This document shows positions 7,094 to 58,541 of a DNA stretch of 58,541 nucleotides, in pieces. The notes beneath the pieces are model-generated. The model saw only the letters and a program-made list of their open reading frames with translations, ran no database searches and was not told the origin of the DNA. Location of the stretch: contig PAOZ01000033.1 of NCBI GenBank assembly GCA_002708695.1, positions 1 through 58,541 of the forward strand, in the 5' to 3' direction. Source of the stretch: Methanobacteriota archaeon. Its GTDB lineage: Archaea; Thermoplasmatota; Poseidoniia; Poseidoniales; Thalassarchaeaceae. Position 1 is the stretch's first letter; each line of letters begins with the position of its first letter. A program made the translations under genes and the position numbers.

Positions 7094-7101
7094 AAGGGGA
7101 C

Positions 7102-13619: not shown

Positions 13620-13632
13620 AATATATAAAGTA

Positions 13633-14121: not shown

Positions 14122-14125
14122 GTAG

Positions 14126-14890: not shown

Positions 14891-14891
14891 T

Positions 14892-15476: not shown

Positions 15477-15552
15477 AGGTTATTTAAATTATTTTATATT
15501 ATTTCTTATTATGTGTTATTTATTGTAAAATTTTATATAATTTTAATTTAAT

Positions 15553-15993: not shown

Positions 15994-16009
15994 TTAATAC
16001 TATAACAAA

Positions 16010-17794: not shown

Positions 17795-17886
17795 AAAATT
17801 ATATTATTATATCCGATTTTTTTATATTTTATTACTAAAAATAAATAACATTAAATAAAAAATAATACATTACATTAGATTATACA

Positions 17887-18324: not shown

Positions 18325-18325
18325 T

Positions 18326-20008
18326 TTAAAATAATAATTCTTCACTTTCTCCAAATTCTGTATTAAATTCGGGAAATACGGGGGTTGTATCATCGGGTAT
18401 ATCTCCATATTTTGCCATAATACAGGCCGGACAATCTCCATACCTCGAAAGACTTCTATCCATAACCCTAGGAGTACATGTACATTCTGATGTACTAACA
18501 CATTTATTTCTTTTTACATATCTAACACTTGTTCCGCCGCTCTTTGTTTTATATTTCTCGGGTTTAAACTCTGATACATATTTAGCCCCGTGCATTCTAA
18601 GCATTCTTTCTTCTATTTCAGGTATAGTCATATCGCTTACTTTTTTCTGTTTTGTAATAGTCGGTTTTATCCCGGTTATCATTGGAATTGGCGGGGATTC
18701 ATCTGAATAATCCATATCATCATCAAGTCCTTCATACATAGCCGACATATCAAACGGGTCTTTTGTTGTTTTACCCTTTCTTTTCTTTACACCAAAGTTG
18801 CTTTCGTTTTCATTTCCAATGTCTTCTCCGAAATTACTTTCGTTTTCATTTCCAATGTCTTCTCCGAAATTGCTTTCGTTTTCATTTCCAATGTCTTCTC
18901 CGAAATTGCTTTGATCGTCACTTGCCAGAGATTCGGAATCTTCCCCAAAATATGAATCACCAAAAGAAGTAAAATGATTTCTTTCATCATAATTAAATTT
19001 AATTCTACATATAGTGTCATCATCTTGTTCTCTTAAAGCCGAATTTAATTTATCCATGACATCGGTTATGTTCTGATTTCTTATATCAGAAACTATTTTT
19101 TTTGTCAGTTTCTTACATTCTGTATTCAGTAATCTTGGGTTCATTTTACCTGTAGAAAATGTTATACCGCTAGAACTTACCTGTGGAAACAAATAAGATA
19201 ATTTATTATCGCTATCTATATCAACAAAGAAAATTGGCCACATTTTCATATAATCGGAGTCATCATTGAATTCTTTTCTCATAAATTCTACCGACTTCTT
19301 TTGTGTATTTATCGCTTTCATCATGGTATCAGACATTACATATTGTGGGTCTGGTTCTATATCTTCTTCGGGGGAATCCCCGCTAATGTTGTAAATATCC
19401 ACTGGTGGATCAAAACCTAATTTTTTATAATCCTGCGCCGCTTTGTATATATCATCTGGGACCGGAGAAAAATTATCATTATTATCTGGGTCGTCTCTTA
19501 AAGCTTGAAATACTTCTCTCTCGTCTGCTTCACAACGAGAATCCATAAATACATCCAACGGAACTGTATTATATGTCCATGTAGCGACCCCGTCTTCAAC
19601 TTCTCGGTTAATACCTGCTTGGATGTCAACATCAGAATCAAATTCTTTAAAATGATAATAAGATACTATATCATTTTCTACACTCGCTATTACATAACCC
19701 ATTCCATTACATTTAGTATATAGTTCTTCTAGGATGCTTCTAGAATCTGAACTTTGCGTTGGAGCACTCATTCTTCTACGCGCTAGACGTCCCCTGTATA
19801 TCCTTTGAACATCCAATGCAGCTTCATTTTGATCCCTTATTCCAGACCCCCCTGGTGTTCCAGATCCTCCTGGGATTTTGGAGGTATCTTTAGATCCTTC
19901 TTTGTTTAAACACGTTCTTATTTGATCTTCTGTTAAATTTTGAATCATCCAGTTTATTATATTTTCATTTGAAAGTTTGTCGAAGTATTTTAGTGTTTCG
20001 GCACTCAT
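18326..20008 (-). CDS. Acidic hypothetical protein with an IQ motif and 12-aa tandem repeats
   Basis: AALDVQRIYRGRLARRR; (NFGEDIGNENES)x3. Start moved to ATG 20008 to avoid overlap with the helicase gene. Confidence 0.7.
   Translation of the reverse strand: MSAETLKYFDKLSNENIINWMIQNLTEDQIRTCLNKEGSKDTSKIPGGSGTPGGSGIRDQNEAALDVQRIYRGRLARRRMSAPTQSSDSRSILEELYTKCNGMGYVIASVENDIVSYYHFKEFDSDVDIQAGINREVEDGVATWTYNTVPLDVFMDSRCEADEREVFQALRDDPDNNDNFSPVPDDIYKAAQDYKKLGFDPPVDIYNISGDSPEEDIEPDPQYVMSDTMMKAINTQKKSVEFMRKEFNDDSDYMKMWPIFFVDIDSDNKLSYLFPQVSSSGITFSTGKMNPRLLNTECKKLTKKIVSDIRNQNITDVMDKLNSALREQDDDTICRIKFNYDERNHFTSFGDSYFGEDSESLASDDQSNFGEDIGNENESNFGEDIGNENESNFGEDIGNENESNFGVKKRKGKTTKDPFDMSAMYEGLDDDMDYSDESPPIPMITGIKPTITKQKKVSDMTIPEIEERMLRMHGAKYVSEFKPEKYKTKSGGTSVRYVKRNKCVSTSECTCTPRVMDRSLSRYGDCPACIMAKYGDIPDDTTPVFPEFNTEFGESEELLF
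18799..18912. repeat. Coding tandem repeat, 3 x 36 bp
   Basis: Unit tgctttcgttttcatttccaatgtcttctccgaaat, repeated without spacers. Confidence 0.9.
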
Positions 20009-23070: not shown

Positions 23071-26000
23071 TCATTTCATTAATAAAAATAGTATCAAGAG
23101 AACTATAACTACCCCAGCTCCTATCCCTCCATACTTAATCATCTTGTCTTTATTTTCAACTTTTTTCTTCTCTTCTTCTATTTTATTTTCAAGAACTGTA
23201 TTTTTACCTTTAAATATATCTATTTCTTTTTTACATTCATCTTTTTCTTCTTTTCTAATTTGTTCTGCATCTACGGGTACGTTATTCTTCGTCTTTTCCG
23301 CTTCTAATTCAGCTTTTAAATTAATTATCTCTTCGCCCAAGTCTTCTATCTGTTCCATCTTCAAATCCACAGTCTCGCCGCTCTTCTCCGCCATGCCGAC
23401 GATAGCCTCCGTCGCCTCCGCCTCCGACGCCAGCAGCTGATCCTGCAGTAGTTGGTTGGTCCCTCGAGCCGCCTCCAGCTGCGCCTTCAGTGACTCCACT
23501 TCGGCGCTAGAGGGACGCGCCGCCAGTTGCGCCTCCAGCTCAGCGACGCGCGCCGCCGCCGCGCCCGCCGCCGCCTTAACGTCAGTATCACTTACACCTT
23601 CTGATTCTTTAATAACATTATTTAATTTTTTTATAAACTGAACTGCAAATGTTATAGGTTTAGTATTTTTATATCTACTATCTAACAATTCTCTAAATGT
23701 TTCAATAATCCACTCACTCTCTCCTTTCATATGGAGACTAAGATACGCCATAAGCATTTTAAGCCCTTGCATTTCACTTTCAAAATTTGGATGATTTGCT
23801 ATAGTCACCCACACGGCGATATATTTGGACATTGGCGATGTAGAAGCATCAAGCTGAGGAACATTTTCTCCAAATTCATCTCTATTTTTTTCGTTGAATC
23901 TTTTGAGGCCTTGCTCAAAAGTGAGCTCAGAGGCCTTACCAGCATTGAAAATTTCTATTATTTCGGGAGGAAATGGTTCATCTTTTATAATCGCAGTGAT
24001 TAATAGTTTAGAAATCCTTTTAAATATTTCAACATTCTGTTTTGAAGGAAATGCAGGGACATCTTGTGCCCTCCCGGTCCCTACCTCTACCCCTACTCCT
24101 TCCCCTGTCCCTGTCGCTACCCCTACCCCTCCCCGTAGTTCGTTCAAGACTGTAATTTTCATTTCTTCTACTTGCCTGACATCCCTACCGGTCACCGCCC
24201 CCCTTGGTCTACTGTCAAGTTCCGCCAATTCCACTACTTCCTTGGTTAGAGGATGAAATCTCTGTGCAAAAGCTTCGTATTCAATATTAGTGAAACCTTC
24301 ATTTCTGGCTACCCCGCGAATAATGTCTGCCACGGCTAGCTGATTAGGATTAAGAGAATTGAGTATATTGAGCGTGGCGACAGTGGTGCCGGAGGGCGGG
24401 GGCGTCATGAATACAGCGGGGCCCCAATCGTCATCGTCGGGATCGACGTCACCCTCATCGTCAGTATCTTCAGGGGAAACGTTTCCGGTGTCAACCAGTG
24501 TGAAATTGCCGCCGCCTTTGTTTACAACGGCGACTGATGCGGTGCCTGGTACGGTGAGAGCATATTTGTAGTGATCTATTGTCAAGTCTACCCAACTATC
24601 CATCTCCTGATTGAGTACAGTAAAATACGCATCAGGATCATGGTCATGAAGTACAGTGTGATTTCCACAAACGTATACCAGGTTTACAAGTCTTATATTA
24701 TCAACCAATACCACTATGAGATTATTTATTATTTCTCTGAAATTGTTAACAAGTTCATTAAATTTCTGTTCCGTTAGTCGTCCGTCCTTATTCTTTGCCC
24801 TCTCTTCTTCGATGGCTAAATCCAGGCGCTTCCCAGAATTTGAAATAATATCCAAAAATGCTAATGTGATATGATTCATTAATTTAATTAACCATTTTCG
24901 TCTTATTTCCTTTTTAGATGCATTTTTTAAATTTCCATTAAGAATTTCAAATGTTAGTTCCTTGTATGCCTGTTTAGAGTGGTATAGTATATTAACGTTA
25001 CTCGCTTCAAGTGATTCTTGCCCGTCGGTAAAGGGTGTGCTTGCTTGCCCCTTGTTCCAATTCCAAGTATCTCTACCGGGTCCTGGTAGGTCTTCTAAAT
25101 TTCCACGGAACTTGTCTTCGAAGACATATTCGTCTAACGTAGTCTTCCAACACATATAGTGTTTTTCATCGTTCCACATTATGTTGTCGTATTTTAACCA
25201 CCACTTGTCGTCGGTAGACTTCTGGTTGATCTTCTGCGTACAGGATTTAGCGGCATTAAACCAATAGTCTATATCCTTTCCTTCAACTTCAGGTGGTGGG
25301 GCGCAGGCTTCGCCGCCACCCCAATTCTTTGGTAATTTACTTAAATATTCGCCGGTGATATTAGCATTGCCTAATCTGAACTGGTACACATTAGAAATTC
25401 CACAGTCAAAGTTATCTTTAAACCATTGTATATGACCATATAACTCCGATTTACCTTTGTACTTTCCAGTTAATAATTTGAAACCAAGGACATCCCACTC
25501 ACCAAGATTAGGCCTATACAATTGTGCAATGTTTATTTCAAAAACTTTCCCAGCAATCTCGGTGCCATAGTTGATGATCGGGTTTTGTTTAACAAATTCT
25601 TCCTGTGTAACTCCCTGCTGCCTCCGGTCAAAATTAGAGACAGCAATTATATTAGAATTTTCAAATTGTTCTTCCTTAGGAAAGACATTCGTGATACCCA
25701 CAGGAGCCCCTTTCATGTAACCACTTAAAATTCCAGGTATTCGATCGATTCCGGTGAAAAACAATTCGTCCCCACCTGGGGAAGCGTACTCGGTTATAAA
25801 ATCCGGCTCTGAGGGAATGGCGCACGCGCGGAACTTGTTGACCGGTGTAGTTGCTGGAAAAGCCACTGCGTTCATGATGGCCTCATTGGCTCTCTCTTTG
25901 TTGGTCATCGCCGGGTCGATGGAAGCAACGACTTTTTTGTTAGGAATATTTAGTGATTGATTGTTGGCCGGCCCTATCGAATCCGTTGGAATGGAAGCAA

Positions 26001-26625
26001 CGACTTTTTTGTTAGGAATATTTAGTGATTGATTGTTGACCGGAGTAGTTGCTGAGTCTCCTTGCTCGCGCAGCACGGGCACGTTGAGAGAACCGCAGGA
26101 CTGCGCCGGCCCGAATTCGTAGTTCTGCCAAAAATAATCGCCGAGCTCCTCTTTGTACTTCTCGTCACATCTATTGCGGACAAATTCTCTACAATGCTCG
26201 CAATCTGCGGGCAGTTTGCCTACGCAATTAGTCACCAATTTTTTGCAAGTGTTCAAGGCAATTCCCGTATCGTAACCACTGATGGAGGTTACGGTTGCGG
26301 TCGCCCTCGTCGTGTTCTTCGCCGGCGCCTTCGTCACTGTCTGCTGCGACGGTGGGTCGCACCCTTCCTCCTCCGCTATCATACACGATTCCTCATTCCC
26401 AGCCGCGCATTCGTGTTCAAGCCATTCGCACTGTTCATTTTCATATTTTTCTACTCTCTTTCTATTTCTAGGCTTAACTCTTTGTAGAACCGAATATGGT
26501 TTTTTACGAGGTTCCTTTTTTTCATAAAGTTCTTTAGAATAATGACTAGAACCCCCGCTCGTGGCATTATTTGAATCTATAGATGGTTCATGAGAAGATC
26601 TCTTGTATTCTTTATGGTATTTCAT
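23071..26625 (-). CDS. Large C-terminally membrane-anchored protein with Cys-rich N-terminus and coiled coil; possible virion or membrane protein
   Basis: Cys clusters near the N-terminus, duplicated NNQSLNIPNKKVVASI, heptad region before the TM helix GGIGAGVVIVLLILFLLMK. Confidence 0.7.
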   Translation of the reverse strand: MKYHKEYKRSSHEPSIDSNNATSGGSSHYSKELYEKKEPRKKPYSVLQRVKPRNRKRVEKYENEQCEWLEHECAAGNEESCMIAEEEGCDPPSQQTVTKAPAKNTTRATATVTSISGYDTGIALNTCKKLVTNCVGKLPADCEHCREFVRNRCDEKYKEELGDYFWQNYEFGPAQSCGSLNVPVLREQGDSATTPVNNQSLNIPNKKVVASIPTDSIGPANNQSLNIPNKKVVASIDPAMTNKERANEAIMNAVAFPATTPVNKFRACAIPSEPDFITEYASPGGDELFFTGIDRIPGILSGYMKGAPVGITNVFPKEEQFENSNIIAVSNFDRRQQGVTQEEFVKQNPIINYGTEIAGKVFEINIAQLYRPNLGEWDVLGFKLLTGKYKGKSELYGHIQWFKDNFDCGISNVYQFRLGNANITGEYLSKLPKNWGGGEACAPPPEVEGKDIDYWFNAAKSCTQKINQKSTDDKWWLKYDNIMWNDEKHYMCWKTTLDEYVFEDKFRGNLEDLPGPGRDTWNWNKGQASTPFTDGQESLEASNVNILYHSKQAYKELTFEILNGNLKNASKKEIRRKWLIKLMNHITLAFLDIISNSGKRLDLAIEEERAKNKDGRLTEQKFNELVNNFREIINNLIVVLVDNIRLVNLVYVCGNHTVLHDHDPDAYFTVLNQEMDSWVDLTIDHYKYALTVPGTASVAVVNKGGGNFTLVDTGNVSPEDTDDEGDVDPDDDDWGPAVFMTPPPSGTTVATLNILNSLNPNQLAVADIIRGVARNEGFTNIEYEAFAQRFHPLTKEVVELAELDSRPRGAVTGRDVRQVEEMKITVLNELRGGVGVATGTGEGVGVEVGTGRAQDVPAFPSKQNVEIFKRISKLLITAIIKDEPFPPEIIEIFNAGKASELTFEQGLKRFNEKNRDEFGENVPQLDASTSPMSKYIAVWVTIANHPNFESEMQGLKMLMAYLSLHMKGESEWIIETFRELLDSRYKNTKPITFAVQFIKKLNNVIKESEGVSDTDVKAAAGAAAARVAELEAQLAARPSSAEVESLKAQLEAARGTNQLLQDQLLASEAEATEAIVGMAEKSGETVDLKMEQIEDLGEEIINLKAELEAEKTKNNVPVDAEQIRKEEKDECKKEIDIFKGKNTVLENKIEEEKKKVENKDKMIKYGGIGAGVVIVLLILFLLMK

Positions 26626-46604: not shown

Positions 46605-47067
46605 TTATAACAGCTAAAGATATCAATAACGCTATTACAATTTTCCCCTTTATGTTAACTTTGTCTATAGATTCCATTATATAAGGAAATGTATCATTAA
46701 ATATTTTATAAATAGGGGATGAATTTAATATAATATAACTAAATAAAATTACAATAATCATTCTGTGATTTTTCTTATCTTTTATATCATTTATTATAAT
46801 CTGTAAAGCGGTATCTCTTACTAGAGACTTTTTATCTATTTTTGTTGTTTTAGAGTTTGAGATATCGTTCTTTTCTCGCATACCACTTCTAACAGAAACT
46901 GGAGAGTTTTCTCTCTGTGGTTTCTGTTTGTTAAGCGTATTTAATTTATTGGGAATCTTTTCACTCATATTGTCGCTGTCATTGTCATTGTCATTGTCAT
47001 TAATATGATTATCGTTTGAAACAGGGGGTGTTTCTAATTGTTTTACATTGCATTCAAATTCTGACAT
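46573..47067 (-). CDS. Hypothetical protein with two C-terminal TM helices
   Basis: Low-complexity N-terminus (NDNDND) followed by two hydrophobic segments. Confidence 0.6.
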   Translation of the reverse strand: MSEFECNVKQLETPPVSNDNHINDNDNDNDSDNMSEKIPNKLNTLNKQKPQRENSPVSVRSGMREKNDISNSKTTKIDKKSLVRDTALQIIINDIKDKKNHRMIIVILFSYIILNSSPIYKIFNDTFPYIMESIDKVNIKGKIVIALLISLAVIINNSSLLNQP

Positions 47068-47155
47068 TAAGATATATTATATTATACATTTAATAAAAAA
47101 ACTAAAATTTAAACGTTTTTATTAAAAAAAAAATATATATGATTATATAAAAGAT

Positions 47156-49255
47156 ATGGGTATTAGTAATGTAGCCATCAAGACGTTTAATTCATCAGGT
47201 TCTCAATCTGTGTGTAGAGCCAACAAATTTAAAGAAGACACACTGATAGAATCTGATTTTTTAACCAAATGCACTACAAGTTATATATCTGGAACTGGTC
47301 AGAGTGTTATTCAGGGTAGTATAAAGGGTTTCCCCACTGGTCTTCCATCTCAGGCAAGCAATCATGACATATTTGATATTCCGGATGATGTTGATGCTAT
47401 TAGTGATATTGTATTAACTGGCACAATAAATTTCGACATTCCAGAAAATCCATCTAATGAAATAACATCATATGTAAATAGCACATCCATTTACTTTTCT
47501 GATTATCTATTTTTAAGTATGATAGATAAAATAGAGATTAAATTAGGAGGATTAATTATAGACACTATTACATCAGATTCAATTTATGCAAGAAACGTAA
47601 CCGAACTTGATGGCGAAGTATGCAAATATTCTGGTTCCAAAAGAATGTGTGAAAGCCCCAACGTTTATACAAATAGAAGATTACCACTTGGTGAGCGCTC
47701 TGACCATCCAAGTGGAGTCAACAATGGCAGCCATACTAGGAGCGCGCCTACAGGAACTTCTAGTATAAAAAATAATAAAGTAGAATGGTCTATATCTATT
47801 CCATTTACTGGAAGGGGTAGCCAAATGACTAATGCTTTCTTACAGGCTGGATCTACAACAAATACACTCTCGATGAAAGTTTACTATAATAATTTCGACC
47901 CATTAAGATTTCATGCTATTAGAAAAGAAATTTGTGATGCGTCGGTGGCGAGCATCACCCACGCCGATGGCTCAGGCGGAAGCATAACCTACCAGCCACT
48001 AACAAATGAAAATAGTGAGGGGTGTGGAATAGCAGCATGGCCTCTATTTGGATATCATCAGGCTACTTACGGAGTTAATCAGGAAGCCACTAATTGGAAA
48101 TTCTCAACATCGGCAACTATAACTACCCATATGATAACAGAGACTGAGAAAAACTTTATTAGAAACAATATAGTGAATAGAATTTTAAAAACATCAGAGA
48201 CACTTGAGTTTCCAGAACCCGAAAAGCTCTTAAATTCATCTCCCACTGGTTCAAATGACGCAAATGGCTCCGCGATTATATCAAAAAAACCACCCGGGGA
48301 ATATACAGAAGTAATGTTCGATATTAGTAACTTCGAATGTAATTGCAGTCATATTATATTATCTCTTAGGTTACCTTCTTTCGTTAATAACAGTTTAACT
48401 AAACATATTGACACAGCCTCTATCGCTGCCGCCATTGATGCCTCCGTTACGGCTAATACACAGGGTTTCTTGAATAACCACCTTCAATACCGCCAGAATT
48501 GGCCTTCATCCCCAGGACTTTTTTTCAATGCTGATAAGATTGACCCAACGATCTTCGCGCCTGGTCCGTGGCCACGCATCTCCATGAGCGCTGGATACTG
48601 GAGTGGTATAGATCATTTAGAATCTTATAGTCCACTAATCCCAGATGATAATCGTGGAGATTTTAATTCTTCTGAAACGATAACTCATTACCCTCTTATA
48701 CCATTCGATGTAACAGATTTCCGCACAGGTGGCATGGATTCTCAATGGCTCCATGCTAGCCTTGCGAACTACCACGCATTTACGGGAACTAACCCTATCC
48801 TCAAAAAACCTCATTATCCCGAGGTTCCTAGAGTAGGATATGTAAACGATTGGTTACACTCCGTTGAACTTGTAATAGGAGGCGAAAGAACTGGTTTTGT
48901 TCCCGGTACAGCTCTTAAGATTTCTCAATTAAGTGATTATGGATTAAAAAATCATAATAATGAAGGTATATATGTTTTAAAACTTTCAGATTCTGCATTT
49001 AGTACATCTGGTGTACCCCTTGCCAAATGTAATAGTGTAAAATTAAATATAAGGATAAACAATGATATATATAACCCAATAGCGAAACGAATTGGTACAT
49101 CTTCGGGAGATATATTGACTAGCACTAATTATGATTTTACCGGTGATACTCTAGATGGTACTTCTATAGCAGCAGGGAAACCAAAATTAGTTGCTACAGC
49201 TGTTGGTACTACAGTCCAAACAACTGTTGGTGGTTCTATCTCACTTTCAGCCTAA
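47156..49255 (+). CDS. Divergent double-jelly-roll major capsid protein paralog
   Basis: DVDAISDIVL..; LSMIDKIEIKLGGLIIDTI; SISIPF; MKVYYNNF; SHIIL; LHSVELVIGG; PLAKCNSVKL; VATAVGT. These follow the NCLDV MCP pattern. Confidence 0.75.
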   Translation: MGISNVAIKTFNSSGSQSVCRANKFKEDTLIESDFLTKCTTSYISGTGQSVIQGSIKGFPTGLPSQASNHDIFDIPDDVDAISDIVLTGTINFDIPENPSNEITSYVNSTSIYFSDYLFLSMIDKIEIKLGGLIIDTITSDSIYARNVTELDGEVCKYSGSKRMCESPNVYTNRRLPLGERSDHPSGVNNGSHTRSAPTGTSSIKNNKVEWSISIPFTGRGSQMTNAFLQAGSTTNTLSMKVYYNNFDPLRFHAIRKEICDASVASITHADGSGGSITYQPLTNENSEGCGIAAWPLFGYHQATYGVNQEATNWKFSTSATITTHMITETEKNFIRNNIVNRILKTSETLEFPEPEKLLNSSPTGSNDANGSAIISKKPPGEYTEVMFDISNFECNCSHIILSLRLPSFVNNSLTKHIDTASIAAAIDASVTANTQGFLNNHLQYRQNWPSSPGLFFNADKIDPTIFAPGPWPRISMSAGYWSGIDHLESYSPLIPDDNRGDFNSSETITHYPLIPFDVTDFRTGGMDSQWLHASLANYHAFTGTNPILKKPHYPEVPRVGYVNDWLHSVELVIGGERTGFVPGTALKISQLSDYGLKNHNNEGIYVLKLSDSAFSTSGVPLAKCNSVKLNIRINNDIYNPIAKRIGTSSGDILTSTNYDFTGDTLDGTSIAAGKPKLVATAVGTTVQTTVGGSISLSA

Positions 49256-49329
49256 ATACATAACTCTTAATTGTCTTATTTTTACGAATTTAATTGTAAT
49301 ATAATATATATCGTTATAGTATATATTAT

Positions 49330-52300
49330 ATGGCAACTGGTTCATTTGCCGCTATAGCATCATATAACGGAACCGGTACGCAGGGGTTAGCCGTTGTGGA
49401 TAAAATAAAAGATGACGATGAAGATGATGTAATGTCTGTATTCTGGAACAAAACAGATACAGATAAACAAATTTTACACGGATCTAACATTCTAGAGATT
49501 CCTACATCAACATCTAATAAACAAGGAACATGGGGTGGCAGTCAGACTTTCAGTGTTAATCCAGAAGTTGATTGTATAGGAGACATTTACTTAGCATTGA
49601 ATGTAGATTTTAACATCCCTGAATCTTCACTGGTTGAAGAACAATATCCAAGAACAATAACCACGTTATTACAAAAACCGTCTGATCCAAATCATGAATT
49701 TTTAAACAATACACAACCAGTTGGTTATTCTCTTAGGGGAACAAAGAAAGGTGATACAGAACCTAAGAGTAGTATAATAGGTTATCAACAGGGTTTTAAA
49801 AGAGATGAATCAACTAGTTATGATTCTAATGGAATACCGTCTGCATATTCTCAAAATGGATATCCAAATAGAGGAGAGGGGGATGATGAACATTGGATGG
49901 AACTTCCCGCTCAGAGAAAAACATTAAAAGGGATAAGAACTTATTATGATACTAACCCATCATCAGGAGAAGAACCTAATGAATTAGTTAATACAGGTAT
50001 GTTATCTAAATCTGATTCTGTTCATATGACAACAGTTGATACTCAGGTGAATCAACCCCATGATAATTCAGGTAATATTCTAGAAGGATTTAATAACTGG
50101 ATAAACACATCATTAATCGAAACCGCAAACGATAATCATTTAAGCGCTAAAGTAACAGATGGACCTCCCCCTGGTAGATTTCCTGGAGTATTAACCGAAG
50201 AAGACGCCAACGAAATAAAACACACTGGCAACGAATTTTTAGCTTTAGATGAAAACGGGGAATTTGAGATATATAATTCCGAGGGGGTTGTAGCAAGTGA
50301 TCTATTTAAATCTTATCTTAATAGAAATGACATCGATAATTTAGTGAATTATTATAATGACAGTACAACACGTTCGCATCCCCTCGAGACATTAAACGAG
50401 ACATCCGGGTTACAAGATGGGGAGGTTAAAAGTATAACAAAAAACAGTTTTTCTATAAATGATCAGGAAGTCGGTAACGCAGATTTTAATGGAGAGTGTG
50501 TTGCTATAAGCGAAGATGGTAATACAATGGCAGTTGGGCAGGGGTTTACAATATCTAGAGACGGACTGGTAACAGCAGGTGTTAAAGACGTTGCCCATAA
50601 CGCTCCATGGAACACATACACACCAGCCGAGACTCCTTATGGAACCTGGTCTCATGATAATAAAGTAGAAGGAGTACCAATTGGGCATTATATGAAAAGA
50701 CCTGATAATTTAAGCATAGATGATACTATAAGACATATTGGAAAAGTTAGAGTATATAAAAAGAAAAAAGGGATTTGGATGTTATCAGGAGTATTACATC
50801 CTCCAAAATCTACCTTTACACCACCCAAGAGACCCGGTATAAATAATACTATTGTACCGGGTCCTCAGAACGGGTTTGCTAATGGTAATACTATTTTTAC
50901 AGACCCGTCTTCTAATGGTATGACTTTAGAATGGACAGGGAAAAATCAACATAGTAGCGTCGTAAACCCAGATTTTACTGCTAATACACCCACAGATCTC
51001 AATGCAGAGTCTACTAATTTTACCGGTTTTACACAAGGTGGACTCCACGGTTTTACAAATAATAAATACATTAGTATAAACGCCGATGGTACTCGTATAG
51101 TAGTAGCCGAGTCTAATAAAAATTCAGGGGCTCCATATAATGGATGGAGTGGTACATTTGATTATACAGAAACCGATGGGTGGAAATTTATTAATGAAGG
51201 TTATGTGGGTAGATACAGTAGAGCCGATATGGATTACAAAGGAATTCCTGGTGCTTGGGATGTATCATTATCAGGCGATGGAAATTCTTTAGCTTCTTTA
51301 GACTTAAGAGCTTTAGCTGGGAATACAATAAATAACAGACACGCTTGTGCACCTATTGAAATGATAGATTATGAAAAATGGAAGTTGGGAGGAAGTGAAG
51401 ATTGGGATAAATTTCTTCCAGGAGATTATGATAATATTGATGAATATGTCGTAGATTATGATAACTACGCGAGCATCACGAACCCCGGTGCGGTGATTGA
51501 CGGGCGATTTTGGCAGCAATCCCCTATTACAGAAGAAAACCCTCAAAGTGTTCATAAATGGAAATGGGCATGGTTTATTTCTGAATTTGGAAGAAGACAT
51601 CGTTGGGATAGTAATTACGATGTAAATCGCGAAGGAGGGATAAAAACACATAGTCTTTCTAAATCTTGGGCAAGGGCATCATTGGAAAGAATTTTAGATT
51701 CTAAAACAGTTCCTTTTTCTGATTTTATTAGAATGAGACCTAGAATTGGTCATAGAATTTTACAATCCCCGGAATCGACAAATATGGGAGATTTTTTTGA
51801 CTTGGACCCCAACAATAGTAATACGGAGGTGACTGAGGACATTCCACGTGGTATAAAAGCTTCTAATTCAGGGTATATGAATTCTATTAGTTTTAAAGAC
51901 AACGGTATTAAACCAAGTAATCCTTATGAACCAAGTCTTTCACATAAGGAAAATTTTGACATACCAAGAAATACTATAAATACTGAAAATCAAACAAATG
52001 AATCCGGTACAACTTTTCCTGAATCGACTATTCCATTCAACCATTATGCATATTTTAAAGAGGCTGTATTTCCAGGCGGAGGTTCAGAAGCATATAAACC
52101 ACACCCGTGTAATGTTTGGATTAGATACTGGGATCCTACAAATCAAGGACCTAATAAAGATAATATAGGAGGAATAGGATATAATGAATCGGATAGAATA
52201 AATGGATGGGTAAATCATAAGGTAGATTATATAAAAGATTCAGGACTTTTTGGACGAGGAGATAAAGATATTTGGCATCAATACATATACAGAAAAATAT

Positions 52301-55300
52301 TAAATTTAGACGAGGCTCTTAAAGAGCATTGGGTGGCATTTCGCAACGCCGGCGTGGGCGGGTGGGGGAGCCCCGGCTACACCGGAAAAATCCATGACTA
52401 TCCACTGGGTGCAATCGGCGCCACGCTGCCGCCCGGGACGGTATCGGACGGCGGGGCAGACGGCTTGATAGGCGTCGGCGTCTACAAATGGCTCCATAGC
52501 CCGATGAGCGGTGGCGTAGCCCAGGACGTGGGTTATGTACCACCTCATGGTGGTGACGTTATTCAAGGCATGGCCGTGCCAGATGTATTTCTTGACACAA
52601 TAATACCTTTATACGCTGACGAGAATATGGAACAAAATGAGACGCCGCCTGGTTATGGAGAAATATCTAGAGGAAGGGCAAATTGGGGTTATTATGGGCA
52701 AAATATGGAGGACGAGGTTAGCTCCGAAGTCCCTGATGACTGGCCAACAAAGACTGATGTACATGCTATGAATGTTAATCCAAACTATCCATTTAATAGA
52801 ATGAGTGAATTTCAGCTCGGAATATGGGACCCAAGTCATCCTCAACATTCTCATCTTCAAAACTTAGACTATAAAATACCTGAAATATTAAATTTATACA
52901 TTAGAAATACATACATAGCGGGAGAACCAGAAAGATGGGCTGCAAAAGGTGTTAAAATGAGTTCAGATGGTAATAGAATAGTGTATATAACAGATGCTCC
53001 AACTCCTGTTGATAGAAGAAGTTTACCTTTAGAAACTTATAGTCCAGCCTCGGGGGCTTTGGGGTTGAATAGCATCGGAGGACAAATAACAAACATGCCA
53101 ACTTGGCCAACTCCTGCAAATTGTGAAGTGAGAGTTATAGAAAAGAATTCAGAAGGGAATTGGGTATATATGGCACATTCGTCTGGGGATATGTATTCTG
53201 GACTTAATGTTCCAGCTGGTCACGAGGCTATTGATATGACAATGAGTTCAGATGGTAATACCGTAGCTGTATACTCAAAAAGACCTAATTTATATCCAAG
53301 GTGGGCATGGGAAGAGGTTCGTAGACTAGAAAATGGGAAACCTATCGAGATAGAGCTTGATCCTGAAGAACAGGCTCGCGAGATAGTTTATTCTCAAGTG
53401 GGTTCTAATATAACCCCACCCACTAGCGATCCTTACGGATGGAATTATGCTAATGGTAATCTTGGTTCATCTATTGCCTTAAGTGGGAATGGGACGAGGC
53501 TTATTATTGGAGCTCCCGTGACTACCGGCGGCGGCGAGTTCGGCGACAACGGCGACCAATGGGGTAATGCATATATATATGATTGGGTTATAACCAATGG
53601 CACTGGTTCATGGCAGCTCCTCCCCGCGTACGTGCATGGCGACGCACCGGGTAGTCTTTGTGGTTCTTGCGTAGCGATAAATTATGATGGAACAAGATTT
53701 GCTGTAGGTTCAAATGATGGTGTTCGTGTATATGAATCTAATTTCCACGAGGGTAGCACACCTGGGCAGGGCTACTGGACGTTGGACATTATAGGCCCTG
53801 ATCCTTATGGTTCATTAACGGGTTTCACTCCAGCCTCTATATCTATGAATGGCGTTGGTGATCGTATTGTTATTGGGAACCCCACCAAAAATGGCAATGC
53901 AGGTGAGTGGAAGATCTTGTTTTACAACCCCACAAGACCCATCGACCCTGGATGGTACAGCCCCTGGGGGCACTACGGTGGTGCTAGCTCGATGACGGGG
54001 TTGTCTGTGGATATGGATGATTCTGGCGATAGGGTAATTATTGGATGTGGTGCGGCTTCACCCGAAGTTTGGCAATATGATAAAGGAGTTGATAGTGTGT
54101 GGGCACGGGTTTTCTCGTTGGGACGACTTTCTTCAGCTCATATATCAAATAACGATAGTGTGTCAATAAGTGCAGATGGGCTTATAGCGGCGGTAGGAAA
54201 TTCTACTTATGATAGCGGCGGAGTGACTGATCGTGGTGCGGTCATAGTCTTCGAAATTCCTTATGTAGTTGGGGTCGACGCGGAATACTCAGAACCTTCT
54301 GGCTCCGCCCATTTTTCCATCCGTCAACAATTTGAAGGCGGCGAACTCGACACTGGTGGTACTGGCGAAGTTATTGGTAGATCAGTTGCGTTGAACAATA
54401 ATGGTACTATTCTTTCTTTCGGGGGTGTTCATTATTTAAGTTCTGTTAGTAGTTATTATCCAAATAGAGGTAGTATAAGAACATATTTATGGGATGGTAA
54501 TCAGTATAATAGCGAATTAATTAAAGGCCCTCATGGCCAAGAAGTCCCCGGTAATTATATAGTTGGCGACCCTCAAGATATGATTGCAGTGGCTAATCAC
54601 GAACCCTCGGCACCCACGAGTCTCTCAAGTCATAATACTTTATCTATTAGTGCAGATGGACTTACTATTGCAGCCGGGCTTCCTTTAAAAAATCCTGATG
54701 GAGAGGCTCGTGTATTTAAAGGAGTTTATAGTCACCTGGGAGCGGGGTCAAGACCCGGGTCTTATTTTATTTCAGTTTACCCGGCAACCAGTGGCCTCAT
54801 ACAGGGTGGTGTGTTTTATTTAAATGATCAATTATCTCCAAAATTAAACTTTATCTACGGAAATTTATATGTTTTTACTTGGCCAAACGAATATCCTTTG
54901 AGTTTTTCTACTACACCAGATGGTATTCATAATGGAGGGGTTGATTATATTCCAGTTGATGGAACTAATGTTCAACCCGATAGCAAAGGTGGAATATATA
55001 GCGGACCTGATCCCATATATAACATTTTTCAAGCTGTCCCCGGTTTTGGCCATACTGTTATCCGTGCTGCAAAATCAATGCCAACACTTTATTACTACTG
55101 TAAAAATCAAGCTAATATGGGAAATAGAATCACATTTCAAAGAGCTGTTCCATGGGTAGAACCTATTCCAGAAGATGACTATACCGTATACAATTCTTTT
55201 ATAAACGACGGACTAAATGATATAAGCAGGGGAGTAGGAGAACCCGCTATTACAATCCATAGTATAGTTGATGGATCTTGGACACAAATAGGAGATACAA

Positions 55301-58300
55301 TATATCCTTCTGGATATCACGATACGGGTTTTAGACACAGATCGGTAATAGGAGATCCTATAGTAGGTTCTGAAGCTCCAGTTTTTGAAAGTCCTTTGGA
55401 TTTTATAGACAACCATTGGAAATATCCCCGAATGAAATACTCGCTAGATTTAAACTCAGACGGTAGTCGTCTAGTAATCGGGGCACCGATGAATATACCT
55501 GAAGATTCTGGACCTAAAACCGTTGAATATAATGTAGACGTAACGAGTTCAACTTTAATAAATCCTATTAGTGGCACACCTTTTATTATTTATTCTTATG
55601 AGATAAATGATAAAATTCAACCTAACCTCGAATTAGTAAAATTAAACACTTATAAGTTCAAAGGGAAATCTTTTATACAACAACCTGAATTTAAAGTAAC
55701 TTTAAAGATTCATTACCCTAGCACCGTCCCTTCCTCTACCCAGGGGTGGCAAGAGTATCATTCAACTATTATTCAGGGTCACGTGCAAACGCAAGATTAC
55801 CCTCCCAACCTTCCAGGTTCTAATTCTACATGGCCTCTTGTTATAACATCGGATAATGTATTTGATTCTAATCACCAGTACTCACAATATTATACCGCCG
55901 GGGGGGCGCCGCCTACAAGTAATTATTTTGACGTGGCTAAGTTAGAAGCGGCTGGCATGGATTTTTCGAGTGAAAAGGATGTAGTATATTTTCCGAGTCA
56001 TATTCAGTGGGCAATGTTTATAACTGGTGAATTCACTAAAAGAACTATAGTTTATCTTGTTATTAAAGATTCCTTGCTTAACATGGGCGCCAACGGGGAG
56101 GGGCGCGATCAAGACTTAAGTTCTTGGCAATTTTTGGGTCAAGACGAAGATCTTGTAATTGCCAGCGGGGCGTCGGGCTCCTCTGCGCAAGGTCCCTGGA
56201 AATTATATAAAAAGATTTATGAACCGGGTATTTATGAATATGAATTTAATTGGGACATTTCATACCATTTTTATCAAGAATCTGAAACACAACCTATCCG
56301 TCCAGATCCCATTATTAGATTTTCGACAACACCTAATGGGACACATAATTCAGGTGTAGAATACACTAAAGGGGTAACTATAGATCTAGAGAATAATATT
56401 ACAACTATAGAAGTATCTGATGACACACCAACCCTTTATTATTATTCCTCGCAAAACGATCGTATGGATGGCCTAGTAACTATTCTTGAAAGAACGGCTA
56501 AAAATTCAAGTGATTATTATAGAACATTTAATGGAGTAGACGAATATATAGTTCCTTGTGGTGAAGTGTTAGTTTATGATAAAAACCTTGATAATACATA
56601 CACTCTTAAAAACAGGATATCAAAAGACAACCAACATAATAAATCAGATTATTCAACTACAATTCTCACTCAACTTACCGGGGATGTGATACCTTATACA
56701 AGAACTGATTCTAACGGGGATTTATTACCTCATTCCCCTTACGTAGAAGGAATTACTACAATAAAAACGAGTATAGATTACATAGGTAGTGGACAAGACA
56801 GTGGATATAGATTTGGTTCATCAGTTTCTATCTCAGGGGATGGTAATACAATTTCTATAGGAGCACCAGAAACTGGGGTTCAAACAGTAGATGGAAGTGA
56901 AGTCATAAGCGGTGCTTCTGATATAGCCAATACATTTACGTATACTGCTACAACAGCTCCAGTGCCCGGACCTAAGAAAAAACCCGGAGATAAATTCGCA
57001 AAAGCATTAGATGTATTTAATCTAGTAAACCAGGCTCAAAAAAGATCTAATCACGATATAACAGATTTTTCTAATTTACCAGATATAGGCGAACCTATTA
57101 ACTGGAAGAAACAGTTTAAAGAAGTTCCCGAAGGAGCTATATTACCTCCTGAGCTTGACGAATATGATAATCCACAGTGGGCAAGTTCAGATTTAAAAAG
57201 TAAAGTTAATTTCCCCCTTTCTAAAATAATAAAACGAATAGAATTTACTGTAGGTACACAAATATGGCAAATACTAGAACATGATGATATTTTAGCTATC
57301 AACGCAACCGAGTTACCCGAAAGCTCTTATAGACGTTTAGGTCTTCAATCACACGGATTTTTAAGATCGGATGGTACTAGAGAATCTACAAAAATTGATA
57401 ATTGGATACCTGGTAAATCATATCAGGCTGTAATTCCTCTCCCTGTTTTAACTAAAACAATTGGAGGTCAATTAGAAAATTTTACCCAAAATACAGAGGA
57501 TGGTTACTTATCTTTTTTGGCAAAAGATCAAGAAGTTAAAGTTAGAGTTTTTTATTCTAATTTTGAAGACATTTGGGATGTAAACGAAGTATTTGCAACA
57601 AAGGGTTTTACAGCTGCTATTTATAACCTTGAAAATAAACAGAGAGGTTTTGGTCAATATATAACAAATGCGCCCATACCATGGAAACCAGATGCTATAT
57701 TAACCAGTAAGTTATTTGGGAAACACTTCATTATGGCAAAGGAAGAAAAAGAATATTTTAAAAATAATCGGGGAAGGTTTGGTAAAAATATAAAAAGTAC
57801 ATCTACTCCGTGGAAACGAAATACTACACGCACTGGTAATTTATTTGGGAAAAACATAATTATGGCAATGCAAAAAGATACTATTATACCGAAAAGAGTT
57901 AAGTCATCCCAAAATGTAAATAAAATATTCCCACGAGAATTATATCCCGATACTAAAATAATAATAGACCTTGATAGTTTTAGTTTGTATTCATCTCATC
58001 TTATAATAACTTCTAATTTCCCAAGTTTTTCTGATAAAACAAAAATTCCAGTATTAAAAAGTGCAGAATTATTTTTAAATTCAGAATCGTTTTCTGGTAT
58101 AATGAATGCTTCTATACTTAAAGGTATTACAAATAAATCACTGGGATTATACTCAAATGAGTTTAACATAGACAATCTAGATACAGCAGCAGGTAATGAA
58201 TATTATGTTTTTCCTTTAGCTTCAAGAGCATTTGGGGGTTCTTCTATCCCTCTAGATCGTTTTGATAACATAAGACTAGAACTAATGTATACATCGCCTA

Positions 58301-58413
58301 GTTTAAATGAATTTGGAATTGAAATTTCAGAAATGGCTAATATTAACGTAACATGTAGAGGAGAAATGTTAGTAACGTATAAGGATGGAGTGTCAACTAT
58401 AAAGTTATACTAA
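49330..58413 (+). CDS. Giant MCP paralog (3027 aa) with a ~2,525-aa insertion of beta-propeller-like repeats
   Basis: MCP N-terminus (aa 1-97, ..VDCIGDIYLALNVDFNIP) resumes at ~57196 (SKIIKRIEFTVGTQIWQ, AVIPLP, EVKVRV, PLDRFDNIRL). The insert holds 14 (S/A)+S.DG..+.+G motifs. Confidence 0.85.
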   Translation: MATGSFAAIASYNGTGTQGLAVVDKIKDDDEDDVMSVFWNKTDTDKQILHGSNILEIPTSTSNKQGTWGGSQTFSVNPEVDCIGDIYLALNVDFNIPESSLVEEQYPRTITTLLQKPSDPNHEFLNNTQPVGYSLRGTKKGDTEPKSSIIGYQQGFKRDESTSYDSNGIPSAYSQNGYPNRGEGDDEHWMELPAQRKTLKGIRTYYDTNPSSGEEPNELVNTGMLSKSDSVHMTTVDTQVNQPHDNSGNILEGFNNWINTSLIETANDNHLSAKVTDGPPPGRFPGVLTEEDANEIKHTGNEFLALDENGEFEIYNSEGVVASDLFKSYLNRNDIDNLVNYYNDSTTRSHPLETLNETSGLQDGEVKSITKNSFSINDQEVGNADFNGECVAISEDGNTMAVGQGFTISRDGLVTAGVKDVAHNAPWNTYTPAETPYGTWSHDNKVEGVPIGHYMKRPDNLSIDDTIRHIGKVRVYKKKKGIWMLSGVLHPPKSTFTPPKRPGINNTIVPGPQNGFANGNTIFTDPSSNGMTLEWTGKNQHSSVVNPDFTANTPTDLNAESTNFTGFTQGGLHGFTNNKYISINADGTRIVVAESNKNSGAPYNGWSGTFDYTETDGWKFINEGYVGRYSRADMDYKGIPGAWDVSLSGDGNSLASLDLRALAGNTINNRHACAPIEMIDYEKWKLGGSEDWDKFLPGDYDNIDEYVVDYDNYASITNPGAVIDGRFWQQSPITEENPQSVHKWKWAWFISEFGRRHRWDSNYDVNREGGIKTHSLSKSWARASLERILDSKTVPFSDFIRMRPRIGHRILQSPESTNMGDFFDLDPNNSNTEVTEDIPRGIKASNSGYMNSISFKDNGIKPSNPYEPSLSHKENFDIPRNTINTENQTNESGTTFPESTIPFNHYAYFKEAVFPGGGSEAYKPHPCNVWIRYWDPTNQGPNKDNIGGIGYNESDRINGWVNHKVDYIKDSGLFGRGDKDIWHQYIYRKILNLDEALKEHWVAFRNAGVGGWGSPGYTGKIHDYPLGAIGATLPPGTVSDGGADGLIGVGVYKWLHSPMSGGVAQDVGYVPPHGGDVIQGMAVPDVFLDTIIPLYADENMEQNETPPGYGEISRGRANWGYYGQNMEDEVSSEVPDDWPTKTDVHAMNVNPNYPFNRMSEFQLGIWDPSHPQHSHLQNLDYKIPEILNLYIRNTYIAGEPERWAAKGVKMSSDGNRIVYITDAPTPVDRRSLPLETYSPASGALGLNSIGGQITNMPTWPTPANCEVRVIEKNSEGNWVYMAHSSGDMYSGLNVPAGHEAIDMTMSSDGNTVAVYSKRPNLYPRWAWEEVRRLENGKPIEIELDPEEQAREIVYSQVGSNITPPTSDPYGWNYANGNLGSSIALSGNGTRLIIGAPVTTGGGEFGDNGDQWGNAYIYDWVITNGTGSWQLLPAYVHGDAPGSLCGSCVAINYDGTRFAVGSNDGVRVYESNFHEGSTPGQGYWTLDIIGPDPYGSLTGFTPASISMNGVGDRIVIGNPTKNGNAGEWKILFYNPTRPIDPGWYSPWGHYGGASSMTGLSVDMDDSGDRVIIGCGAASPEVWQYDKGVDSVWARVFSLGRLSSAHISNNDSVSISADGLIAAVGNSTYDSGGVTDRGAVIVFEIPYVVGVDAEYSEPSGSAHFSIRQQFEGGELDTGGTGEVIGRSVALNNNGTILSFGGVHYLSSVSSYYPNRGSIRTYLWDGNQYNSELIKGPHGQEVPGNYIVGDPQDMIAVANHEPSAPTSLSSHNTLSISADGLTIAAGLPLKNPDGEARVFKGVYSHLGAGSRPGSYFISVYPATSGLIQGGVFYLNDQLSPKLNFIYGNLYVFTWPNEYPLSFSTTPDGIHNGGVDYIPVDGTNVQPDSKGGIYSGPDPIYNIFQAVPGFGHTVIRAAKSMPTLYYYCKNQANMGNRITFQRAVPWVEPIPEDDYTVYNSFINDGLNDISRGVGEPAITIHSIVDGSWTQIGDTIYPSGYHDTGFRHRSVIGDPIVGSEAPVFESPLDFIDNHWKYPRMKYSLDLNSDGSRLVIGAPMNIPEDSGPKTVEYNVDVTSSTLINPISGTPFIIYSYEINDKIQPNLELVKLNTYKFKGKSFIQQPEFKVTLKIHYPSTVPSSTQGWQEYHSTIIQGHVQTQDYPPNLPGSNSTWPLVITSDNVFDSNHQYSQYYTAGGAPPTSNYFDVAKLEAAGMDFSSEKDVVYFPSHIQWAMFITGEFTKRTIVYLVIKDSLLNMGANGEGRDQDLSSWQFLGQDEDLVIASGASGSSAQGPWKLYKKIYEPGIYEYEFNWDISYHFYQESETQPIRPDPIIRFSTTPNGTHNSGVEYTKGVTIDLENNITTIEVSDDTPTLYYYSSQNDRMDGLVTILERTAKNSSDYYRTFNGVDEYIVPCGEVLVYDKNLDNTYTLKNRISKDNQHNKSDYSTTILTQLTGDVIPYTRTDSNGDLLPHSPYVEGITTIKTSIDYIGSGQDSGYRFGSSVSISGDGNTISIGAPETGVQTVDGSEVISGASDIANTFTYTATTAPVPGPKKKPGDKFAKALDVFNLVNQAQKRSNHDITDFSNLPDIGEPINWKKQFKEVPEGAILPPELDEYDNPQWASSDLKSKVNFPLSKIIKRIEFTVGTQIWQILEHDDILAINATELPESSYRRLGLQSHGFLRSDGTRESTKIDNWIPGKSYQAVIPLPVLTKTIGGQLENFTQNTEDGYLSFLAKDQEVKVRVFYSNFEDIWDVNEVFATKGFTAAIYNLENKQRGFGQYITNAPIPWKPDAILTSKLFGKHFIMAKEEKEYFKNNRGRFGKNIKSTSTPWKRNTTRTGNLFGKNIIMAMQKDTIIPKRVKSSQNVNKIFPRELYPDTKIIIDLDSFSLYSSHLIITSNFPSFSDKTKIPVLKSAELFLNSESFSGIMNASILKGITNKSLGLYSNEFNIDNLDTAAGNEYYVFPLASRAFGGSSIPLDRFDNIRLELMYTSPSLNEFGIEISEMANINVTCRGEMLVTYKDGVSTIKLY

Positions 58414-58493
58414 TAGTTTTAATAATAAACAGTCAATAAAAATAATATACGAATTTAATTTAAAAAAAAAATATATTCGTATATTAAATAAAA

Positions 58494-58541
58494 ATGTCTG
58501 GAGCTGTAGCTGCTCATGCTTCGTATAATGGAAGTGGGACC
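58494..58541 (+). CDS. 5' end of a third MCP-family gene, truncated by the window edge
   Basis: ATG 58494 translates MSGAVAAHASYNGSGT, matching MATGSFAAIASYNGTGT of 49330. Confidence 0.75.
   Translation, partial: MSGAVAAHASYNGSGT

Follow-up and report, generated by a model that had tools for sequence, protein, structure and literature searches.

The window analysed here is the contig PAOZ01000033.1 (C33) at its full length of 58,541 nucleotides (nt), from the assembly GCA_002708695.1 filed under a Methanobacteriota archaeon. At 49330-58413 on the forward strand it carries a single uninterrupted frame of 3,027 amino acids (aa), designated P0001, whose two ends match a family of short capsid-type proteins and whose middle is a very large insertion in one loop. 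We propose that P0001 is a rare, specialised capsomer subunit with a built-in and exchangeable host-binding head, and we put the probability of this reading at about 60%. We infer its incorporation into the virion, its low copy number, its oligomeric state and its function in adhesion from the comparative and structural evidence.

The first ~94 and the last ~395 residues of P0001 match a marine protein family of ~500 aa, whose members start with MSGAVAAHASYNGSGTQG...D.LGD.Y. In these short homologs, the N-terminal block is followed by 19-60 residues and then by a strand with the motif II.R[IV]EF.VGTQIWQ. In P0001, 2,546 residues separate the N-terminal motif (aa 87) from the strand motif (aa 2633), the second longest spacing among the 136 family members measured, after the 2,575 residues of P0124. 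We placed the insert at aa 98-2632 (nt 49621-57225). The preliminary description of this gene had set it at aa ~98-2622 (nt 49621-57195), which is right to within about 10 residues, and had called it a continuous open reading frame, which the unbroken 3,027-aa frame bears out. Since the DNA has a G+C content of 33-46%, a frame of ~2,500 codons cannot be attributed to chance. A word search with the last 427 residues returned 147 metagenomic protein matches, and an exhaustive HMMER search returned 107 cluster representatives of the family; P0203 (2,574 aa), which also came from the exhaustive search, was rejected as a repeat-protein false positive.

For the fold of the two ends, we used an AlphaFold2 (AF2) model of the short homolog P0031 (534 aa; alignment of 38 sequences), not of the window protein itself. 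The model contains 8+8 strands with a helix after strand F in each half, and its mean predicted local distance difference test score (pLDDT) is 52.8 with a predicted template modelling score (pTM) of 0.57, the strands reaching a pLDDT of 70-80. Compared with the PDB by Foldseek, it matched only double jelly-roll (DJR) capsid proteins, with E-values from 4e-15 to 1e-9, a probability of 1.00 and a template modelling (TM) score of about 0.5. These were capsid chains from PBCV-1 (Paramecium bursaria chlorella virus 1; E 4e-15), Vp54, and the capsid proteins of Emiliania huxleyi virus 201 (EhV-201), Singapore grouper iridovirus (SGIV) and faustovirus, together with p72 of African swine fever virus (ASFV), P3 of PRD1 and Sputnik. 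Among the predicted viral structures of BFVD, the model likewise matched only giant-virus and virophage capsid proteins (E 9e-15 and weaker, 8-12% identity). The flanks of P0001 are 34-54% identical to the modelled family, and by this homology their membership of the DJR capsid-protein family is supported, in line with the split DJR-type core that had been proposed for the gene. Sequence searches did not reach this assignment: neither Pfam nor the PDB gave a match for the whole of P0001, its first 107 aa, its last 427 aa or the joined flanks, Capsid_NCLDV and Capsid_N giving no hit even at E-values up to 1. No Pfam domain was precomputed on any of the 120 listed family homologs, and PDB sequence searches with the family profile or with the propeller segment described below likewise yielded nothing meaningful.

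The model also identifies the loop that has been enlarged. In P0031, three strands are followed by the variable loop, two strands, a helix and three further strands, and the second half of the protein repeats this order. Since the order matches that of the second jelly roll, the variable loop is the D1-E1 (DE1) loop, between the third and fourth strands. DE loops lie on the capsid exterior (PMC9617893, PMC2671561), so that the earlier placement in an outward-facing loop of the first jelly roll holds. The exterior insertions of PBCV-1 are found in the BC, DE, FG and HI loops (PMC9617893), and insertions in DE and FG form the 'towers' of adenovirus hexon as well as the 190-residue insertion of mimivirus L425 (PMC2671561). 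By the strand order of the P0031 model, aa 1-94 of P0001 (49330..49611, forward strand) would form the N-terminal arm and strands B1, C1 and D1 of the first jelly roll; this part is 53-60% identical to the N-termini of the short paralogs and of longer paralogs with a tower-sized loop. Strands E1-I1 of the first jelly roll and all of the second would lie in aa 2633-3027 (57226..58410, forward strand). The core of P0001 exceeds those of P0124 and P0125 by 36 residues, and the segment linking the two jelly rolls seems to have been duplicated locally (aa ~2826-2880, nt ~57800-57960; KLFGKHFIMAKEEKE / NLFGKNIIMAMQKD).

We divided the insert, which reads on the forward strand throughout, into nine segments, A to I. 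Segment A (aa 98-390, 49621..50499), the proximal part, is conserved and bears two motifs, PRTITTLLQKPS and D..LV.YYND. It is common to all members of the clade of giant proteins to which P0001 belongs (G1), and it has no match in Pfam, PDB, NCBIfam or PHROGs. Segment B (aa 391-660, 50500..51309) contains three blade-like motifs, at aa 393, 583 and 647. It is followed by segment C (aa 661-1195, 51310..52914), a variable module without a recognised fold, which has no family match in Pfam, NCBIfam or PHROGs and is missing from the G1 proteins P0125, P0127 and P0129. Segment D (aa 1196-1360, 52915..53409) has two blade-like motifs (aa 1210 and 1305) and leads into segment E (aa 1361-1835, 53410..54834), a seven-bladed beta-propeller of FG-GAP type, as indicated by its AF2 model and its homologs, which forms the hypervariable tip. 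On the return side, segment F (aa 1836-2000, 54835..55329) is the first copy of a ~90-aa module with the motif FSTTPDG.HN.G..Y...PTLYYY. Segment G (aa 2001-2320, 55330..56289) has one blade-like motif at aa 2041 and then a variable region, and for most of it Pfam, NCBIfam and PHROGs gave no match. Segment H (aa 2321-2440, 56290..56649) is the second copy of the module (FSTTP.G.HN.G.EY...PTLYYY), and segment I (aa 2441-2632, 56650..57225) comprises the last blade-like motif, at aa 2501, and a conserved return stalk (NLVNQAQKRSNHDITDF..LP.IG.PI.W..QF.EVP), which is kept at 40-79% in all G1 giants; FG-GAP_2 scores there below threshold (E 0.006).

Altogether the insert has fourteen blade-like motifs with the core S[VI].[ILM]S.DG.R....G.P. 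The middle seven (aa 1384, 1450, 1512, 1562, 1625, 1688 and 1785) lie in segment E. Searched alone, aa 1360-1835 gave 26 homologs, all 26 of which carry PF14312 FG-GAP_2 (best E 6e-13), and the AF2 model of this region reached a pTM of 0.78 with 28 strands. Foldseek matched the model to seven-bladed propellers (E 9e-11 to 5e-9), among them G-beta, RbAp48, RACK1 and the integrin alphaM headpiece 9t5z_A (query TM score 0.53), a fold match that is generic to propellers. The outer seven motifs (aa 393, 583, 647, 1210, 1305, 2041 and 2501) could close a second propeller around the nested domains. Aligned with one another, the fourteen blades share only a short common core (G..S[VI].[ILM]S.DG.R....G.P), too weak to serve as a profile. 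The earlier expectation of propeller repeats plus other modules was therefore sound, in the form of one modelled seven-bladed propeller and several further modules.

The ~90-aa module of segments F and H is an internal repeat that also occurs in P0124, P0129 and P0130. It matches phrog_6005, a phage family annotated as 'virion structural protein', weakly in segment F (E 0.036) and at E 6e-7 in segment H. A C-x2-H-x2-M pattern in relatives had suggested a cupredoxin; a profile of seven copies found no PDB cupredoxin, its best PDB match being an unrelated Mycoplasma protein (E 0.004), and the pattern is degenerate in P0001 (YYYCKNQANMG, YYYSSQNDRMDG). Across the nine insert pieces, Pfam gave nothing above threshold, and NCBIfam gave nothing on the insert pieces.

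The gene is intact in more than this assembly. Members of 3,022 aa in the same 90% cluster were found on at least 7 contigs, up to 167.6 kb long, from NCBI, JGI, ENA, Tara and Logan, and P0124 (3,019 aa) is colinear with P0001, at 52% identity over the first ~1,400 residues of P0001 that could be aligned. Compared with the relative L001 (92% identical), P0001 has no stop and no frameshift in 1,984 aligned codons. The ratio of nonsynonymous to synonymous substitution rates (dN/dS) in this comparison is 0.19-0.21 for the core, which is 98% identical, and 0.58 for the insert overall. Segments D, H and I stand at 0.18, 0.11 and 0.27, and against a second relative, L006 (77% identical), segments A and B stand at 0.15 and 0.10, so that these parts of the insert are under a constraint like that on the core. 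Because the open frame is conserved and its proximal segments evolve at a dN/dS of 0.10-0.27, we conclude that the insert is translated.

Divergence is concentrated at the tip. Relative to L006, P0001 is 88% identical in the N-terminal part, 89% in A, 91% in B, 60% in C, 79% in D, 75% in F, 61% in G, 86% in H, 79% in I and 77% in the core; segment E has no BLAST match to its L006 equivalent, nor to that of P0124. Both equivalents are nonetheless FG-GAP-like, with a repeat-level similarity of about 25-33%. Other relatives carry different domains in the same loop, namely a WD40 propeller in P0129 (Pfam E 2e-33) and a Laminin_G_3 / concanavalin A (ConA)-like lectin in P0127 (E 6e-10). Between P0001 and L001, segment E is the fastest-evolving segment, with 61 nonsynonymous and 14 synonymous changes and a dN/dS of 1.39, against 8 and 10 changes in the core (Fisher p 0.003) and 31 and 45 in segments D, H and I taken together (p 4e-7). 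The two other variable segments stand at 0.85 for C (aa 1042-1195 only) and 0.79 for G in the same comparison. The G+C content at third codon positions (GC3) is also highest in these three segments (C and G 0.31, E 0.35), compared with 0.19-0.25 in the conserved insert segments and 0.175 in the C-terminal core, a composition that fits later acquisition of C, E and G from outside the virus. FG-GAP adhesion proteins have been reported as enriched and often transferred in giant-virus genomic islands (PMC13620141), one was found at low abundance in purified virions of Prymnesium kappa virus RF02 (PkV RF02; PMC11953307), and such proteins are regarded as adhesion candidates in giant viruses (PMC13620141, PMC11953307).

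P0001 does not stand alone in the genome. It is one of at least five tandem family genes, of about 699 / 3,027 / 770 / 492 / 528 aa, of which the first and second lie whole in the window, together with the beginning of the third; in relatives, the array is flanked by VLTF3 and TBP. In this respect the preliminary description, which took P0001 to be the capsid protein used as a display scaffold, needs correction, since canonical short forms lie directly downstream of it. In L001 the order is the giant of 3,022 aa, then 770, 492 and 528 aa, VLTF3 on the other strand, and TBP; in L006 it is 652 / 2,986 / 759 / 494 / 514 aa followed by VLTF3. A third relative, L008 (G1), has two giant-insert paralogs in tandem, one of 1,926 aa (4182-9962) with a lectin-like region resembling that of P0127, and one of 2,969 aa (10001-18910) with a WD40 propeller. 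Like the capsid-protein variants of PBCV-1, P0001 is a paralog of a more conserved major form and combines a conserved base with a divergent exterior.

The immediate neighbours of the giant gene belong to the same array. Upstream, at 47156..49255 (forward strand), lies a divergent paralog of 699 aa (P0122), identified by hhalign (97.4% probability, E 1e-11) through a match to the family alignment A1 that covers its N-terminal 150 residues only; it retains 38/96 family-invariant residues, and orthologs of 652 aa (L006) and 668 aa (L008) occupy the same place in the array. In the stretch between P0122 and the giant gene (49256..49329, forward strand), a comparison of upstream regions revealed a diverged copy of the paralogs' upstream motif (TACGAATTTAATT), which may act as the promoter of the giant gene. 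Downstream, an intergenic hairpin region (ATATACGAAT...ATTCGTATAT) occupies 58414..58494 (forward strand; folding energy -11.5 kcal/mol, z -4.2). It contains an A+T-rich element of ~60 nt with a 12-bp stem (58434-58494), and an identical element precedes the 770-, 492- and 528-aa genes of L001 (5981-6041, 8377-8437 and 9940-10000). In all likelihood, these paralogs have here a late promoter in common, a 3' hairpin ending the gene before, or both. The next paralog starts 81 bases past the stop codon of the giant gene, and its first 47 nt (58495..58541, forward strand; MSGAVAAHASYNGSGT...), identical to the start of the 770-aa gene of L001, are cut by the contig end. The identical element in front of three paralogs is likely the repeat at which the contig broke.

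To place the giants within the family, we built a tree of the core with the loop cut out. The G1 giants (P0001, P0124, P0125, P0127 and P0129) are monophyletic (support 0.999), and their sister group (support 1.0) is formed by the 'tower' paralogs of 670-770 aa, with DE1 loops of 235-324 residues. A second set of giants, G2, with DE1 loops of 1,386-2,090 residues, stands apart (1.0) and groups with forms of 520-575 aa (0.997), and its insert content is unlike that of G1. By synteny, a G2 giant holds the last array position, adjoining VLTF3; the position of the G1 giant differs. These results indicate that giant DE1 inserts arose independently in two clades, at least twice, and giants make up 12 of about 106 cluster representatives (about 11%). 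The last ~80 insert residues of the giant can be aligned (E 4e-13) to those that close the insert in the tower paralog of 770 aa, so that the giant insert looks to be nested inside an older tower; on the proximal side, giant and tower inserts have only the D..LV.YYND motif in common (E 0.03). Outside these groups, the capsid family has further independent insertions of smaller size (79-302 residues).

Two observations on individual members are added here. The G2 proteins are P0172 (L009 882-8447), P0162, P0169, P0177, P0181 and P0184, with lengths of 1,817-2,521 aa, and their inserts carry repeated 'SYDNGKTWE'-type motifs without a Pfam match. P0148 (731 aa) has three tandem repeats of ~90 residues in its DE1 loop, with a weak match to phage endosialidase beta-barrels (E 8e-4, below threshold).

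As we picture the specialised capsomer subunit, the conserved jelly-roll base of P0001 would fit the capsomer lattice, and the D1-E1 loop would have grown stepwise, with a 'tower' of ~250-320 residues coming first and binding-type domains being nested inside it later. The head would then consist of conserved stalk segments, blade motifs that possibly close an outer propeller, an FG-GAP-type tip propeller, two modules of phage-virion type and two variable modules without a recognised fold. A few copies per virion might occupy special lattice positions, either as homotrimers or together with the tower paralog as heterotrimers. The host surface would be touched first by the tip propeller, which would evolve, or be swapped, rapidly as hosts change. 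By our estimate, the insert amounts to roughly 280 kDa per chain (at about 110 Da/residue), or 0.84 MDa per homotrimer. This mass per capsomer footprint argues for a low copy number, and for the same reason heterotrimers with the sister tower paralog may be favoured. In PBCV-1, 6 of the 336 capsomers per five-fold unit bear fibres, and the capsomers of types V and VI are heterotrimers (PMC9617893).

Several observations weigh against the reading of P0001 as a capsomer subunit with a host-binding head. The fold was modelled on a short homolog only, and the model is mediocre overall; the capsid families Capsid_NCLDV (PF04451) and Capsid_N (PF16903) were not recognised by sequence in P0001 or its flanks. 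Within the insert, FG-GAP_2 scored only 15.0 and 17.1 bits in P0001 itself, below the cut-off of 23, about 60% of the residues have no recognisable fold, and the excess of the dN/dS of segment E over 1 is not significant (p 0.19). A mass of 0.84 MDa on a footprint of about 7.5 nm (estimate) is sterically demanding. Moreover, two motifs that never vary in the short forms, YLMAAAPHQ and C-terminal GGAASLAMY, are missing from the giant core, which because of this loss may no longer fit the lattice.

The last point leads to the strongest of the alternatives, which we consider unlikely all the same: that P0001 is a DJR-derived protein outside the lattice, whether a free fibre, seated on the capsid or on an internal membrane, whose jelly-roll base is only a foot for trimerisation or docking, an intracellular scaffold resembling poxvirus D13, or a modifier of the host surface. 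Both giant clades have lost the two motifs, each on its own, the insert is of very great size, and the upstream region of the gene has diverged from that of the canonical paralogs, all of which would suit such a role. However, the core still keeps 76 of the 96 family-invariant residues (79%), including those of the N-terminal arm, and its low dN/dS points to strong purifying selection. In every relative examined, the giant stays within the capsid-gene array, and diverged capsid variants of PBCV-1 do remain in the lattice (PMC9617893).

A second alternative is that the insert is removed after synthesis, by proteolysis or by protein or RNA splicing, leaving a capsid protein of ordinary size and a free adhesin. 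Introns interrupt some giant-virus capsid genes, as in mimivirus and faustovirus, and both conserved insert junctions could hold cleavage sites. Against removal, Pfam detected no intein or Hint domain in P0001 or its insert pieces, and Rfam detected no group I or group II intron or other family at E-values up to 1 in 47000-58541; no sign of an intron or intein was therefore found. The insert is a conserved frame whose proximal segments are constrained at the protein level. Excision of a loop is possible and would leave the jelly roll as two chains, an outcome for which we know of no precedent. We regard removal as improbable.

It is more improbable still that P0001 is the principal capsid protein, with an insert on every capsomer and hence a thick outer coat. 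P0001 is a full-length, conserved member of the family, but near-invariant canonical paralogs of ~490-530 aa lie just downstream, such paralogs are far more numerous and also more conserved across the lineage, giants account for only about a tenth of the clusters, and the core of the giant is more derived than theirs. A chimera of the assembly or a pseudogene in decay, which the mis-binning of the contig, the different composition of its first 2 kb and its break at a repeat might suggest, can be dismissed, since the same architecture recurs in independent assemblies, including the near-identical 3,022-aa genes, and in relatives at core identities from 98% down to 39%, with the frame undamaged throughout the comparison with L001.

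The contig itself is viral. It has a G+C content of 33% and lies in a bin of 1.77 Mb with mostly 40% G+C, and it encodes PolB, topoisomerase II, an A32-like ATPase (24.8 bits; cut-off 22.8), a TFIIB-like protein, a C962R-type archaeo-eukaryotic primase (AEP) and FEN1, as well as a YqaJ nuclease, a helicase and a DNA methyltransferase. This set of hallmark genes suffices for Nucleocytoviricota, and because of these genes and the deviating G+C content we consider the contig mis-binned. Close uncultured marine relatives of its PolB number more than 90, and among named viruses the nearest PolB is that of Heterosigma akashiwo virus 01 (37% identity); the contig of one relative is a published giant-virus metagenome bin (IMG/VR GVMAG-S-1040241-73). 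The source is an uncultured marine nucleocytoplasmic large DNA virus, probably one that infects algae. Egovirales (gut-associated) and Proculviricetes (polar only) were ruled out by habitat.

Some further features of the bin and the contig were noted. Other low-G+C contigs of the bin (C2, C27, C31, C40, C43 and C46) are perhaps foreign too. The first part of the contig (1-2000) has 48% G+C, compared with about 30% elsewhere, and an open reading frame within it (115-735) encodes E3-binding domains (Pfam E 3.5e-22); this part may stem from the acquisition of a cellular gene, or the contig may be chimeric at this end. At 4261-5397 (forward strand), in the low-G+C viral part, lies a complete sigma-70 factor with regions 1.2, 2, 3 and 4 (Pfam E 1.6e-20), which is surprising in a eukaryotic large DNA virus. 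At 23071-26625 (reverse strand), an open reading frame of 1,184 aa that Pfam does not match has 43% G+C and a GC3 of 0.41, much higher than that of the genes around it.

The array suggests a wider idea, which we hold only tentatively and with less confidence than the reading of P0001 itself. In this abundant marine virus lineage, the capsid lattice as such might be a host-range device, in which an array supplies one or two 'display' paralogs with cassettes in the DE1 loop (FG-GAP, WD40, ConA-like lectin or Asp-box-like repeats), these co-assemble with the tower paralog as heterotrimeric capsomers at defined positions, and a host switch comes about by swapping the cassette within a capsid gene instead of altering a fibre gene. 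Little is known of how the giant viruses that infect marine algae recognise their hosts, and the majority of the lineages are uncultured. If the proposal is true, host-binding modules could be read from one easily recognised gene in metagenomes, which would yield candidates for receptor-binding domains that can be expressed and tested, as well as a marker with which to follow the evolution of host range in the ocean. The gene also extends the known tolerance of the jelly roll, to an insert about ten times the largest described tower, made of nested autonomous domains and evolved at least twice, which is relevant to capsid evolution and to engineered display on jelly-roll scaffolds. Since the standard Pfam model detects none of this family, whose sequence clusters number more than 100, surveys of marker genes based on Pfam may miss the lineage.

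Towers and capsid-protein variants are already known; a recurrent multi-domain loop insert of ~2,550 residues with swappable tips was not found described in the literature searched. The closest system is that of the PBCV-1 variants MCPv1-v5 (PDB 8h2i; PMC9617893), where several paralogs likewise combine a conserved jelly-roll base with divergent exterior insertions in BC, DE, FG and HI. These variants occupy a few special lattice positions that bear attachment structures, some of their capsomers being heterotrimers (PMC9617893), and their chains are the top structural matches of our family model. However, they have only about 400-520 aa and their fibres P20-P23 are separate docked proteins, whereas P0001 has ~2,550 fibre-like residues in its own chain; moreover, the two families have no detectable sequence similarity and are 8-12% identical in structural alignments. 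The towers of adenovirus hexon (DE1, FG1 and FG2) and mimivirus L425 (~190 aa in DE2) resemble P0001 in that an outward loop is enlarged while the pseudo-hexameric base is undisturbed (PMC2671561). They consist of about 190-300 non-modular residues and stand on every capsomer, whereas the loop of P0001 is roughly ten times longer and holds autonomous nested domains on what we propose to be a minor paralog.

The domains in the loops of P0001 and its relatives resemble those of stand-alone adhesion proteins (FG-GAP, discoidin and ConA-like) in giant and polinton-like viruses, with which they have FG-GAP and Laminin_G_3 in common (PMC13620141, PMC11953307, PMC12220804). Such proteins are also known for virion association (ORF473, PkV RF02), frequent transfer and a location in variable genome regions, but they are encoded by separate genes, whereas in P0001 the domains sit in the loop of a capsid protein. 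Among capsid-type proteins, those annotated as capsid proteins in klosneuviruses and related environmental sequences reach 1,115-1,451 aa; the Klosneuvirinae paralogs are DJR homologs far longer than 500 aa (Catovirus 1,433, Fadolivirus 1,442 and Hyperionvirus 1,451 aa), and we found no paper discussing these long proteins. The JGI metagenome fragments P0246 and P0255 are canonical capsid proteins of the Pfam type in whose C-terminal domain an FG-GAP_2 propeller is inserted. In P0246, FG-GAP_2 (E 1.6e-29) lies inside the Capsid_NCLDV domain, with model positions 60-196 at aa 445-573, so the propeller does not sit in DE1. Both the klosneuvirus paralogs and P0246/P0255 differ from P0001 in belonging to the canonical family recognised by Pfam and in having half its size or less, and P0246/P0255 show the same strategy in an unrelated capsid-protein lineage. 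Finally, phage tail fibres also combine a conserved proximal part with a distal binding module that diverges rapidly or is exchanged, and P0001 has a module in common with the phage virion protein family phrog_6005. The anchor is what sets them apart, since a tail fibre is held by the tail baseplate and P0001 would be held as a subunit of the capsid lattice itself.

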